DNA of 64,000 bases. Source: an uncultured bacterium (GTDB lineage Bacteria > Vulcanimicrobiota > Xenobia > Xenobiales > Xenobiaceae). The stretch is taken from assembly GCA_934644775.1 (NCBI GenBank), contig CAKUDB010000005.1, positions 51,036 to 115,035 on the forward strand, in the 5' to 3' direction. Shown one piece after another: positions 29,190 to 35,644 of the stretch (position 1 is its first letter; every line of letters starts with the position of its first letter). The notes under the pieces were generated by a model. It searched no databases and had not been told where the DNA came from. It worked only from the letters and a program-made list of their open reading frames with translations. The position numbers and the translations under genes were made by a program.

Positions 29190-30206
29190 ATGGGTATGGA
29201 AATTCGCGGTCCCAACTTAGGGACATACGACGCAGGTTATCTGCAGGCCGTTCAGCGCGAAATGGCCCGCAGCGTAAAATCGAACATATTAAAAGAAGTA
29301 GGCGATATTGAAGACCAAGTGGCTTTGGCTTTGCAAGGCAACTTGGAAGATTCGGTTACTTTGTCACCAGAAGCCAAAGCTTATCTTAAGAAGCTGCGCC
29401 GCAAGCTTCTTAAGGATAAGGGCTTAGCTCTTATTGGTGAAGAAGAAGATGAAGACGAGGAAGAAGAAAAGCCTGAGCGCGACTTTAACGGCTTGCTCAG
29501 CGACTTAGATTCTTTCCGGCGCAGCCAGTCGGAGCAAGAAGGGCAAAAACAACCACAAAATTTAATCTTTCCCACCACCATCCAACTTTCCGGCTTTGTG
29601 CCCAATCCCAATAAGCGCCTCCACCATCAGGTTTATTCGCCGGTACGTGAAACGATCAATCGCATGATCTACTACGCTCCAACCGAAGCTTCGCGCCTCA
29701 AAGTTCAGGACGAACTAGAGCCTATGGGAGCCAAGATTATCTCTCAAGTAAGATCTTTCGGTGCCCATATTATCGTCTTAGATCGTCGCCAGGCTCTCAC
29801 TCAACTTAAGATCAAGGGCATGTATGTAGTGGCCCCTTCCGAAAAGACCTTCGACGGCCGCTATTGGTCTGAGGTGCGCGGCTTGTATGATTCTTCTCGC
29901 CGCCTGTTAGTCATAGGCGAAGAGCAATTAGGACAGCCCAATCATTCGGTAGCCAGACACGAATTTGCCCACGCCTACGATAATGCCTTCAGCGAAACTC
30001 ACGGCCGTCGTTTGCCCTTATCGGTACAATTATGGAACAAGTTCCGCCACAGTCGCACCGGCTTAGTCTCAAGCTATGCCTCTACCAATCCAGCAGAATA
30101 TTTTGCCGAAACTGTGGAAGCCTATTTCCAACCAACTTTAAAGCCTCTTGTAGAACAACGCGATCCGGAAATGTATGCTTATTTGCAAGAGCTTTTTGCT
30201 TCTTAA
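29190..30206 (+). CDS. Anthrax-lethal-factor-like (ATLF) zincin metallopeptidase domain protein with an acidic N-terminal region and no signal peptide
   Basis: The C-terminal LLVIGEEQLGQPNHSVARHEFAHAYD...NPAEYFAETVEAYF aligns to the LF domain IV sequence ILLHGPSKG...GFIHEFGHAVD...EAEFFAEAF, that is HExxH plus a downstream Glu in EFFAE. Confidence 0.6.
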   Translation: MGMEIRGPNLGTYDAGYLQAVQREMARSVKSNILKEVGDIEDQVALALQGNLEDSVTLSPEAKAYLKKLRRKLLKDKGLALIGEEEDEDEEEEKPERDFNGLLSDLDSFRRSQSEQEGQKQPQNLIFPTTIQLSGFVPNPNKRLHHQVYSPVRETINRMIYYAPTEASRLKVQDELEPMGAKIISQVRSFGAHIIVLDRRQALTQLKIKGMYVVAPSEKTFDGRYWSEVRGLYDSSRRLLVIGEEQLGQPNHSVARHEFAHAYDNAFSETHGRRLPLSVQLWNKFRHSRTGLVSSYASTNPAEYFAETVEAYFQPTLKPLVEQRDPEMYAYLQELFAS

Positions 30207-30345
30207 TTAAAAAATTTCCCTAAGTTAAAAAAGAGGGCAGGCTAACTTTTCTAAAAGGAAAAGCCACTACTTTTGAAACAATTACCAATCTGTTTGGATA
30301 GAACACGAATCTTTTACTTATTAGGTCAGGAATTTTCTTAAGCTT

Positions 30346-33916: not shown

Positions 33917-33958
33917 CTGTTGTCAGCGAAAAAGAGCCCAATTAGTCGTGAGTTTAAG

Positions 33959-35644
33959 ATGGAAATAGACGGCCAAGTTATAGAAAATAGATATATGCTC
34001 TTGGAGCGCTTAGGCAGCGGCGGCATGGGCGAAGTCTATCGCGCTTTAGACCGAGTTAGCGGACAAGATGTGGCAGTAAAATTACTCCTCCCGGCCCTAT
34101 GTGAAAGGGAGTCGTCCCGCAAACGTTTTGCCCGCGAAGCTCAGGCGGCCCAGAAGCTCAATCACCCCGGCATTGTGAAAGTATACGAGTACGGCACCTT
34201 TCACGAACGCCCTTTTATCGTCATGGAGCTGCTGACAGGCCAATCGCTGCGCTATTATGTCAGGGCCTACCGCCCCGCGCCGGAAAAGATTTTGCTGTTA
34301 ACCGCCGAGCTGTGCGACGCCCTTTATCACGCCCACAGTCGCGGCATTATCCATCGCGATTTGAAGCCGGATAATATCTTTGTCAACCATCTGGGCCATA
34401 TAAAAGTGCTCGATTTCGGCTTGGCCAAAATAAGCTTTGCCGCCGACTTGACAGCTTTAACTAAGTCGGGCACAGCTTTAGGGACTTGTACTTATATGTC
34501 TCCCGAGCAAGCCCAAGGCAAAGAGGCCGATTTGCGCTCCGATCTCTACGCAGTAGGCGTTATTCTTTACGAAATATTCTGTGGTATAACCCCCTTTTCT
34601 GCTGAAGACGCTGCAGCTATTTTACGTATGCAAGTGTATGATAAGGCTCAGCGCCCCACTTCAGTCGATCCCCATTTGCCTATTGAAATAGAGCAAATAA
34701 TTATGTGGCTGATGAATAAGAATCCCAAATACCGGCCCACTTCAGCCTTAGTTCTAAAAGAAAAGCTTATCCAAGTAGTTAGAATGCTGCGCGTAGGCTC
34801 AGTCCATTACATCACTCAAGCCAATTTAGAAGAGGCGCAAGGGGAGTTGCCGCCAGTTTCTCTTTCTCCAAGGGACGGAGAAGCTGAGCCTTCTTCCCAA
34901 CTTTCCCCAGCTCTTTCCCCAGCCGAAACTAGCGACTCTGCCCTCTTATCAGTAGATAAACCGCTCCCTTCCCCCTCTGCTCAAGAGCTCTCGCCAATCT
35001 TTTCACCGCTAGGCGATCCATTTTTATCTTCCGACGAAGCTATTTGGGACGAAGCTAAAAAGCTGGAAGCTCAGCAAGTAGAGCGAGAGGAGCTCTCTGA
35101 ACAACCAGAAAAGCCGAGCCAGCCTCCGCGAGTTACCGTTTTAACTATGACCGCCTCGTTAAAAAATTTGCCCTTGCCAACCTTATCTTTAGCTCAGCTG
35201 GCCGCCCATATTAGCCAAGTAATGCGCGAGGCTGTCGATATAAATGGAGGCTTCACTATTCTCAATGAAGGTGCCAATATAAAAGCCGCTTTTATAGACG
35301 AATATGCCGGCTTAAGAGCAGTGCGCTCAGTTATTCGTACCCAAATGAGCCTCCGTCAATTGGGACAGACTTATCATTTATTGAAACTTCCCCCTATGGC
35401 TGCTGGTATCTACTCAGGATTGGTAAAGCCAGCTTTGGCTTCAGGCCCATTTACTGTCGATAATATGCGCGATTTACTTTCCGGGGCCACCAGATTAAGC
35501 AACCTTTCCAACAGCCGACCTAACGGAATTTTTATTTGCGGCGACAGTCTCGATGAAGGTATTGAGGCTAAGTTTGTGCGTAAAATTTATGTTCGCAATC
35601 GCGTATCCCCAGTAGAAATTTACCGCGTAGTGGGGTTAGCTTAA
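33959..35644 (+). CDS. Ser/Thr protein kinase fused to a C-terminal class-III nucleotidyl cyclase homology domain that is probably degenerate
   Basis: Kinase motifs GSGGMGEVY, VAVK, HRDLKPDN, DFGLAK and SPE. The C-terminal VTVLTMTASLKNL (compare VTVLFADIVGFT with Asp lost), FICGDSLDEG and RNRVSPVEIYRVVG (compare KGKxEPVEVY) resemble a CHD. The start is the ATG at 33959, or a TTG at 33920. Confidence 0.6.
   Translation: MEIDGQVIENRYMLLERLGSGGMGEVYRALDRVSGQDVAVKLLLPALCERESSRKRFAREAQAAQKLNHPGIVKVYEYGTFHERPFIVMELLTGQSLRYYVRAYRPAPEKILLLTAELCDALYHAHSRGIIHRDLKPDNIFVNHLGHIKVLDFGLAKISFAADLTALTKSGTALGTCTYMSPEQAQGKEADLRSDLYAVGVILYEIFCGITPFSAEDAAAILRMQVYDKAQRPTSVDPHLPIEIEQIIMWLMNKNPKYRPTSALVLKEKLIQVVRMLRVGSVHYITQANLEEAQGELPPVSLSPRDGEAEPSSQLSPALSPAETSDSALLSVDKPLPSPSAQELSPIFSPLGDPFLSSDEAIWDEAKKLEAQQVEREELSEQPEKPSQPPRVTVLTMTASLKNLPLPTLSLAQLAAHISQVMREAVDINGGFTILNEGANIKAAFIDEYAGLRAVRSVIRTQMSLRQLGQTYHLLKLPPMAAGIYSGLVKPALASGPFTVDNMRDLLSGATRLSNLSNSRPNGIFICGDSLDEGIEAKFVRKIYVRNRVSPVEIYRVVGLA

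Follow-up and report, generated by a model that had tools for sequence, protein, structure and literature searches.

A four-gene block of a zincin, a transglutaminase-fold protein, a Ser/Thr kinase and a small membrane protein in uncultured Xenobia

What kind of locus is formed by neighboring genes for a zincin protease, a giant transglutaminase-like protein and a kinase joined to a degenerate cyclase, and do the products act together? The genes lie in a 64,000-nucleotide stretch of DNA (the window; contig CAKUDB010000005.1 of assembly GCA_934644775.1, positions 51,036 to 115,035) from an uncultured bacterium of the Xenobia, and an initial annotation had read them as a three-gene effector or signaling island. 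From domain identities, the states of catalytic residues, an export signal, synteny and composition, all of which were observed directly, we find that the locus is a block of four genes, not three, the fourth encoding a small protein with three transmembrane segments (3-TM). The block was probably inherited vertically as a feature specific to the Xenobia (Vulcanimicrobiota/Eremiobacterota), and not acquired horizontally as an island of effectors. Support for functional coupling comes from gene order and concerns the kinase and its membrane partner alone.

The features of the locus are given below by window position, with the evidence for each in brackets (AF2, AlphaFold2; aa, amino acids; ORF, open reading frame).

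29026-29056, + strand: probable nadE terminator, a short hairpin with T6 (9-bp stem, -10.8 kcal/mol, z = -2.1, then UUUUUU)
29073-29129, + strand: long imperfect hairpin (fold energy, z-score against shuffles)
29190-30206, + strand: zincin, 338 aa, M34-type gluzincin (Pfam ATLF/M90, PDB profile, AF2, Foldseek)
30346-33807, + strand: pseudo-transglutaminase, 1153 aa, exported (Transglut_core, signal peptide, alignment at the Cys position)
33959-35644, + strand (longest ORF from TTG 33920): Ser/Thr kinase with a degenerate class III cyclase domain (Pkinase, PDB profile, AF2, Foldseek)
35827-36249, + strand: small 3-TM protein, 140 aa (hydrophobic segments, gene order in relatives)

Extent, conservation and inheritance of the block

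The three larger genes are consecutive and co-oriented (ORFs 29190-30206, 30346-33807 and 33920-35644 of the + strand), and their initial description as an ATLF-like zincin, a giant secreted pseudo-transglutaminase and a kinase-pseudo-cyclase was confirmed. The boundaries proposed with them held at the 5′ end, where a hairpin does precede the first gene, and failed at the 3′ end: a terminator had been claimed to close the island at 35644, and no terminator-like site was found on the + strand after that position (the 3′ region folds with z = -1.0 and -0.06) or between the genes of the block. What follows at 35827-36249 is the 3-TM gene, which belongs with the kinase. A homologue of the 3-TM protein is encoded directly 3′ of the kinase orthologue in 20/20 loci with downstream sequence, including the distant L080, L083 and L084, in which the zincin and the transglutaminase are not nearby (loci are labeled L001-L098, and zincin identity serves as the distance scale for relatives). 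The 3-TM proteins of the close and distant groups match in a profile-profile comparison (probability 87%, E = 3.9e-6). Kinase and 3-TM protein are the best-supported functional pair in the region, and the gene order makes the latter most likely a membrane tether or coupler of the kinase.

The closest relatives retain the whole neighborhood. The window is a chromosomal segment from the genus Candidatus Bruticola, a gut bacterium: the best database match of the zincin is 95% identical and comes from Candidatus Bruticola sp., and the kinase is 100% identical to a protein on record (P0121, 561 aa). Gene order from GroEL to peptidase T (PepT) is collinear in L002 and L004-L007, and parts of it are present in L001, L003, L009 and L010. 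The neighbors are housekeeping genes (GroEL, M32 carboxypeptidase, the family-B DNA polymerase PolB, the NAD synthetase NadE, squalene-hopene cyclase and PepT), and cobalamin genes, IspG and other ordinary genes are also nearby. The zincin-transglutaminase-kinase-3-TM block is also kept with differing flanks (L013-L015, L037, L081/L082, L092-L095). In the sister clade formed by L013-L015, L037 and L081/L082, where the zincin is ~52% and the kinase 41-45% identical, the block is contiguous; NadE is upstream, separated from the zincin by other genes, and the downstream neighbors are replaced. Beyond that distance, profile searches of L017-L047 (zincin 39-49% identical) found no transglutaminase or kinase-cyclase orthologue within 10 kb of the zincin, and in distant relatives the zincin, transglutaminase and kinase genes are unlinked, adjoining trpD, trpC, trpF-B-A, GNAT and argH genes. 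The initial annotation had proposed synteny in relatives as a check and named scattering, with each gene conserved as a housekeeping gene, as the result that would count against it. The outcome is divided: linkage holds from Bruticola out to the sister clade, with most neighbors changed, and the more distant genomes are scattered as described.

Composition is ordinary. The three larger genes have a GC content of 0.478-0.486, and of 0.46-0.49 at third codon positions, for a window mean of 0.44 +/- 0.044, and codon-usage distances of 0.80-1.28, for a mean of 1.24 +/- 0.34. By all three measures they do not stand out from the 40 ORFs that the window contains, so the signature of horizontal transfer that had been proposed as a check did not appear. 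The 64-kb window holds no tRNA, integrase, transposase or flanking-repeat signal, and no secretion system genes that might export the zincin, a further check, which had been proposed for the whole genome. Judged by record titles, the relatives are metagenome-assembled genomes (MAGs) recovered from animal guts, rumen, groundwater, lake and further environmental samples, and the zincin family is equally conserved in the groundwater, lake and other MAGs that are not host-associated. These results, with the housekeeping flanks, argue against both labels, "island" and "effector/host interaction", that the locus had been given.

The zincin occurs far more widely than the linkage. Its family comprises 147 clusters of the protein collection searched; among the 120 listed, almost all are full length, with 41-95% identity, and the majority come from MAGs labeled Xenobia, Eremiobacterota or Vulcanimicrobiota. 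In a homology survey restricted to one genome per species it was present in at least 47 species-level genomes, and it is a near-ubiquitous full-length family of the Xenobia/Eremiobacterota. MAGs with a Xenobia-type zincin often carry other labels (Burkholderiales, Riflebacteria, Chloroflexota, Armatimonadetes, Bacillota, Nitrosotenuis) and are probably mislabeled or mis-binned; odd record labels occur at L003, L013, L017, L018 and L025-L035. Other Vulcanimicrobiota MAGs (L048-L053) encode a subfamily of paralogous zincins, 380-400 aa long, whose similarity (35-37% identity) is confined to the catalytic domain; in most of these loci a generic Ser/Thr kinase is found within a few genes. The kinases found near the zincin in L030, L031, L033, L035, L039 and L049-L053 are without a cyclase-like domain and were therefore rejected as orthologues.

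In the distant relatives, the unlinked genes keep company with tryptophan biosynthesis. The zincin lies immediately 5′ of trpD in six loci and near it in two more (L020-L029 range), the kinase-3-TM pair is immediately 5′ of trpF-trpB-trpA in L080 and L084, and the transglutaminase is immediately 3′ of trpC in three contig groups (L086/87/98, L089/90, L091/97). In L090, the transglutaminase is followed by two kinases, of which the second carries the cyclase-like domain; the gene between (L090 5521-7968) encodes a Ser/Thr kinase fused to an AAA_16 (STAND-type) ATPase domain. In the usual trp operon order, trpD, trpC and trpF-B-A are consecutive. Each of the three gene families thus adjoins a different trp gene, and the simplest reading of the pattern is an old cluster with block genes and trp genes interleaved (zincin beside trpD, trpC beside the transglutaminase, with the kinase in L090, and the kinase-membrane pair beside trpF-trpB-trpA), with the Bruticola adjacency as what may be its remnant after the trp genes left; they are no longer at the locus in that lineage. 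Placement of the zincin inside a trpE-trpD operon was considered and rejected, since its upstream neighbor in the trp-linked loci is argH (argininosuccinate lyase), not trpE.

Both hairpins are upstream of the zincin. The short one directly follows the nadE stop codon and, with its T6, is probably the terminator of that gene. The long one, 60 nt 5′ of the zincin start, has an 11-bp perfect outer stem and a 5-bp inner one (-33.1 kcal/mol, z = -6.3), and 0/200 shuffles fold as well. Most Bruticola genomes share it: it is present in L001, L003, L004 and L007, in a shorter form in L005 and L006, and absent in L002, L009 and L010. In the alignment, 92% of cells pair, with one compensatory A-U/G-C change; covariation is not significant, as 166/500 shuffles reach the observed level. 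The hairpin arm has no second copy in the 64-kb window and is not a repeated element. Rfam gave no match at the gathering threshold for the whole window or at E <= 1 for the hairpin region, and therefore no cyclic di-GMP riboswitch like that controlling the Pro-Pro endopeptidase (PPEP) PPEP-1.

The four proteins

The zincin matches Pfam ATLF (2.8e-13) and, in the part from HExxH to the C-terminus, Peptidase_M90 (6.5e-8). Its catalytic set (H257, E258, H261, Y296, E303) is invariant in 66/66 sequences: HEFAH (aa 257-261) is encoded at 29958-29972, the oxyanion residue Tyr296 by the codon starting at 30075, and the zinc ligand Glu303 within NPAEYFAE at 30087-30110. An AF2 model built from 66 sequences has a predicted local distance difference test score (pLDDT) of ~97 over the catalytic domain (aa 150-338, 29637-30203) with values under 55 along most of aa 1-150. 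This N-terminal part is predicted to be largely disordered, yet it carries the strongly conserved motifs GxYD..YLQ.VQRE.ARSVKPN and D.V.LSPEAK. It has no match in Pfam at E <= 10, a result that also leaves a FlgM-like identity of the second motif, which we considered, without support. No hydrophobic segment was found at the N-terminus (maximum 19-residue Kyte-Doolittle mean 0.28), hence no signal peptide, so the protein is most likely cytoplasmic, and the disordered segment may serve in docking or autoinhibition.

Profile and structure searches agree on the nearest relatives of the catalytic domain, which by these comparisons appears closest to PPEP-1/2/3, followed by anthrax lethal factor. 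Searched against PDB sequences, the family profile finds PPEP-1/Zmp1 first (E = 8e-11, aa 139-328 to PPEP-1 6-196), with PPEP-2, PPEP-3 and lethal factor lower in the list. Foldseek likewise ranks PPEP-3, PPEP-2 and PPEP-1 first for the model (target-normalized template-modeling scores 0.63-0.71), and lethal factor appears from rank 40 onward.

The pseudo-transglutaminase begins with a signal peptide (aa 1-22, 30346-30411) of Sec-type appearance, conserved in orthologues, which reads MNRLTFTAAAVSLLCLAPLSAA and is followed by YSQ. A disordered linker with three N/A-PWDKY motifs (at aa 45, 80 and 132) leads to an N-terminal conserved domain (aa ~165-520), the Transglut_core domain (3e-15; aa 525-623, 31918-32214) and a C-terminal DUF3108-like domain, with acidic and Pro-rich low-complexity insertions at aa ~790-960 and ~1005-1075. 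The transglutaminase fold is thus embedded between DUF3108-like domains, and the low-complexity insertions make the protein "giant". The position of the catalytic Cys is taken by Pro571 in the motif GNPEGKA (32050-32070); it is Pro or Ala in 15/15 orthologues, while His605 and Asp622 are kept, and the register of the alignment is fixed by Cys-bearing homologues with GDCGPH...IPAR. From these residues, the exported protein is predicted to have lost its nucleophile and to be able to bind but not to catalyze.

Searched exhaustively with HMMER, the core (aa 160-800) matches 3447 representative clusters at E < 1e-3, of which 34 reach E < 1e-30. Those nearer to it (26-52% identity) are without the Cys and have GN[PASGQR]E at the nucleophile position, and more distant relatives of ~700 aa have GDCGPH in the same register, some with a C-terminal DUF3108. 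Because the near clusters lack the Cys and the distant ones carry GDCGPH, the protein can be assigned to a branch without the nucleophile, within a DUF3108-transglutaminase scaffold that is widespread. For the metagenome scan, a 5-sequence alignment was used, as the 15-sequence alignment had no usable conserved stretch. The whole protein had no match in PDB by phmmer. Within the N-terminal linker (30346-30825), the N/A-PWDKY motif occurs in 2-4 copies, mostly followed by AEP or APAP, and is kept as far out as P0242 and L016. Its place in the sister clade is taken by LPPLxLPPLxG.

The kinase gene probably starts at ATG 33959, since P0121 and all orthologues begin there. The kinase domain (Pkinase 1.6e-50; aa 25-282, 33992-34765) contains the G-loop GSGGMG (32-37), K54, HRDLKPDN (145-152), DFG (165-167) and the APE-like SPE (194-196); K54, HRD, N152 and DFG are invariant in 29/29 sequences, and by these motifs the protein appears to be a catalytically intact Hanks-type Ser/Thr kinase. 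No transmembrane segment was found in it. A Pro/Ser-rich linker (aa ~290-400) leads to a cyclase homology domain (CHD) of 171 aa (aa 404-574, 35129-35641), which Pfam does not recognize even at E <= 10 for the kinase C-terminus; the CHD alone as query in a homologous-protein search also retrieved nothing, though the full-length kinase recovered orthologues. Its profile, searched against PDB, matches class III cyclases end to end (CyaB 4e-9), its AF2 model has a pLDDT of 92.7, and the top 50 Foldseek matches are all class III adenylyl/guanylyl cyclases.

The cyclase active site, in contrast with the fold, has decayed, as the initial annotation had proposed. The first metal-binding Asp is Thr411 here, while distant orthologues keep it (LTADLPGF); the second, replaced by Ala452 in this protein and by Thr in the others, is missing family-wide; and at the position of the transition-state Asn this protein has Ser521, with His in distant orthologues. 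Arg525 alone is retained. Because the metal Asp residues and the transition-state Asn are lost, the CHD is predicted to be unable to make cyclic nucleotide monophosphates. Class III cyclase domains are dimeric in action, their active sites lying where the two subunits meet, and for this reason the dead CHD most likely dimerizes the kinase and/or binds a ligand, which would control trans-autophosphorylation.

The 3-TM protein has no match in Pfam at E <= 10. At the 3′ end, its gene runs into the longest squalene-hopene cyclase ORF (start 36155); the true start of the cyclase probably falls after 36249. The order kinase, 3-TM protein, squalene-hopene cyclase (35827-38395) recurs in the distant L083 (9001-14104), without zincin or transglutaminase upstream.

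Two other regions of the window were observed in passing. The + strand ORF at 4789-8580 (1263 aa, no Pfam match) contains ~1.5 kb of tandem DNA repeats (especially 5439-6934; GC 0.62; periods of 87, 132 and 168 nt) encoding Q/P/A/T-rich units such as APTLGAQPYQPRxA.ALG, and has a hydrophobic segment near aa 960, after which come a C-terminal part that looks conserved and a tail rich in Lys. At 10890-13077 on the - strand, two adjacent cell-wall-related genes encode an NlpC/P60 protein with SH3 domains and a JAB/MPN-domain protein with LysM, the latter an unusual combination in one protein.

Possible functional coupling and its alternatives

The most likely roles of the single proteins are as follows. 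The zincin would work as an endopeptidase in the cytoplasm, its disordered N-terminus either docking it to a partner or keeping it inhibited; the exported, dead transglutaminase-fold protein would serve for binding or as a scaffold on the far side of the membrane; and the soluble kinase would be kept at the membrane through its 3-TM partner, with the dead CHD as its means of regulation. Coupling of all four genes is a more tentative proposal, one that may well prove too broad: zincin and pseudo-transglutaminase could be coupled to the kinase pair, and the block could have a role in signaling from the envelope to the cytoplasm.

Several observations weigh against the explanation favored here. 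The intergenic gaps (139 nt from zincin to transglutaminase, 112 nt from there to the kinase ORF and 182 nt from kinase to 3-TM protein) are not those of a tight operon. Two loci whose zincin, 57-58% identical to that of the window, is closer than in some genomes retaining the block depart from its order: the gene after the zincin in L012 is a different one, and in L016 the transglutaminase is 4 kb upstream on the other strand. The trp ancestry is pieced together from separate lineages, no single locus having the whole of it, and L086-L091 are metagenome contigs of uncertain taxonomy.

The alternative that survives best is that the genes are purely historical neighbors, with unrelated functions, in a region not yet rearranged since the trp genes left, so that only the kinase and the 3-TM protein cooperate. 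The gaps of more than 100 nt, the broken linkage in L012 and L016, the separation of zincin, transglutaminase and kinase in distant lineages, and a zincin family far more widespread than the linkage are all what it would predict. Set against these are the persistence of the four-gene block as the only contiguous stretch kept at ~50% protein identity, where the flanks have changed, the recurrence of the transglutaminase-kinase(CHD) pairing in the still more distant L090, and the retention of the transglutaminase within 5 kb of the zincin after rearrangement in L016. We regard this explanation as somewhat unlikely.

A more specific alternative, which we hold to be improbable, is a protease-substrate pair of the PPEP type, in which the zincin cuts Pro-rich disordered linkers of a protein encoded by a neighboring gene and thereby releases or switches it. 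The candidate substrates, put forward with equal reserve, would be the pseudo-transglutaminase (e.g., KNP-PLP, aa 805-810) and the kinase linker (ELP-PVS, aa 309-314). The nearest solved relatives by profile and fold, PPEP-1, PPEP-2 and PPEP-3, point this way, as do the conserved oxyanion Tyr and zinc-binding Glu of the zincin, and both neighbors have disordered linkers containing Pro-Pro, of which NPP[LAT]PE is kept within the genus. The substrates of PPEP-1 and PPEP-2 are the products of adjacent genes, cut between the first two prolines of P-P-X-P (PMC8610288, PMC12828418). Known PPEPs, however, are secreted (PMC12828418), and here a zincin without a signal peptide would have to meet an exported transglutaminase-fold protein. 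The S-loop aromatic residue of PPEPs (Trp103/Tyr113), with Lys101/Arg111, closes over the P1′-P3′ prolines and contacts those of the prime side. In the HMMER alignment, whose loop register is uncertain, the column of Trp103 (PPEP-1)/Tyr113 (PPEP-3) holds Lys or Arg in the zincin family and that of PPEP-1 Lys101 holds Ser or Gly, with the nearly invariant Phe221 of the zincin two residues past the Trp103-aligned column. Because of the Lys/Arg in the aromatic column, Pro-Pro specificity should not be assumed, and the PPEP-like CD1597 is without Pro-Pro proteolytic activity (PMC12828418). Further against the pairing, identity between the zincin and PPEPs is low (18-21%), no Pro-Pro motif is common to all transglutaminase orthologues, and the zincin is kept in genomes with different neighbors.

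The broader idea that the four genes form an undescribed Xenobia system for envelope remodeling and signaling seems to us still less probable. It would have the zincin, docked by its disordered N-terminus, cut Pro-rich linkers of the transglutaminase precursor or of the kinase, a step that is itself improbable, and the kinase would control this cleavage, with the CHD repurposed as a nucleotide or ligand sensor and the 3-TM protein linking the kinase to the membrane. If true, it would take the "protease next to substrate" logic of the PPEPs outside the Firmicutes and into the cytoplasm. Least probable of all, and in our judgment very improbable indeed, is the reading of the initial annotation, a horizontally acquired effector or host-interaction island with a zincin exported by a specialized secretion system, which draws on a fold related to that of anthrax lethal factor, on the gut origin of the Bruticola genomes and on a disordered N-terminus like that of many secreted effectors, but runs against the unremarkable composition, the collinearity with relatives, the conservation in non-host MAGs and the absence from the 64-kb window of mobility genes, tRNA genes, flanking repeats and secretion system genes.

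The proposal of a vertically inherited block, with the kinase and its membrane partner as its best-supported functional pair, accordingly replaces the "toxin island" annotation, which is removed. As Xenobia are uncultured, insight into their cell biology has to come mainly from conserved genes specific to the lineage, and three families are now defined for testing: a signal-less PPEP-like zincin whose disordered N-terminus is conserved, a nucleophile-less branch of DUF3108-transglutaminases, and a kinase-CHD with an obligate membrane partner. The proposed trp-linked history also helps to reconstruct genome evolution in the phylum.

Comparison with known systems

On present evidence, each gene of the block is an uncharacterized member of a known superfamily, and the block is not a new kind of system. 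The zincin resembles the PPEPs (M34, Pfam ATLF; PPEP-1 is Zmp1 of Clostridioides difficile) over the whole catalytic domain, and its H257/E258/H261, E303 and Y296 align with His142/Glu143/His146, Glu185 and Tyr178 of PPEP-1. It differs in having no signal peptide, and in its 150-aa disordered N-terminal extension. A Pro-rich protein is encoded next door, as it is for PPEP-1 and PPEP-2 (PMC8610288), and the host is a member of the Vulcanimicrobiota, whereas PPEP homologues are found only in Firmicutes (PMC8610288). Were the protease-substrate reading to hold, the PPEP paradigm would widen beyond that phylum.

Lethal factor and MtfA (M90) share the zincin fold and motif set. The extra domains of lethal factor are absent from the zincin, and the M90 match covers only its C-terminal half, with no MtfA structure among the top 50 fold matches. 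MtfA is a cytoplasmic regulatory peptidase, a role that fits a zincin without a signal peptide.

The pseudo-transglutaminase has the same three-part scaffold as secreted DUF3108-Transglut_core-DUF3108 proteins of ~700 aa. It reaches 1153 aa through disordered insertions, including the N/A-PWDKY repeats, and has GN[PASGQR]E in place of GDCGPH.

The kinase is nearest to the Hanks-type PknB/Stk1 group (NF033483 at 1.2e-92, aa 18-317), with all catalytic motifs, and scores far below the equivalog cut-off of that family (312 vs 450 bits). Unlike PknB/Stk1, it has neither a transmembrane segment nor PASTA domains; the sensor is replaced by the pseudo-cyclase and a separate membrane protein encoded downstream. 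A Ser/Thr kinase N-terminal to a cyclase-type domain is a known architecture (NCBIfam TIGR03903, TOMM kinase/cyclase, of which the kinase part was matched), and the CHD has the full cyclase homology domain fold of class III cyclases such as CyaB (3r5g), Cya2 (2w01), CyaC (1wc1) and Ma1120. It differs from these in that the kinase appears to be live and the cyclase dead, the first metal Asp being lost in the Bruticola branch and kept in distant orthologues. Animal receptor guanylyl cyclases, which join a dead kinase to a live cyclase, are the mirror image of this arrangement.

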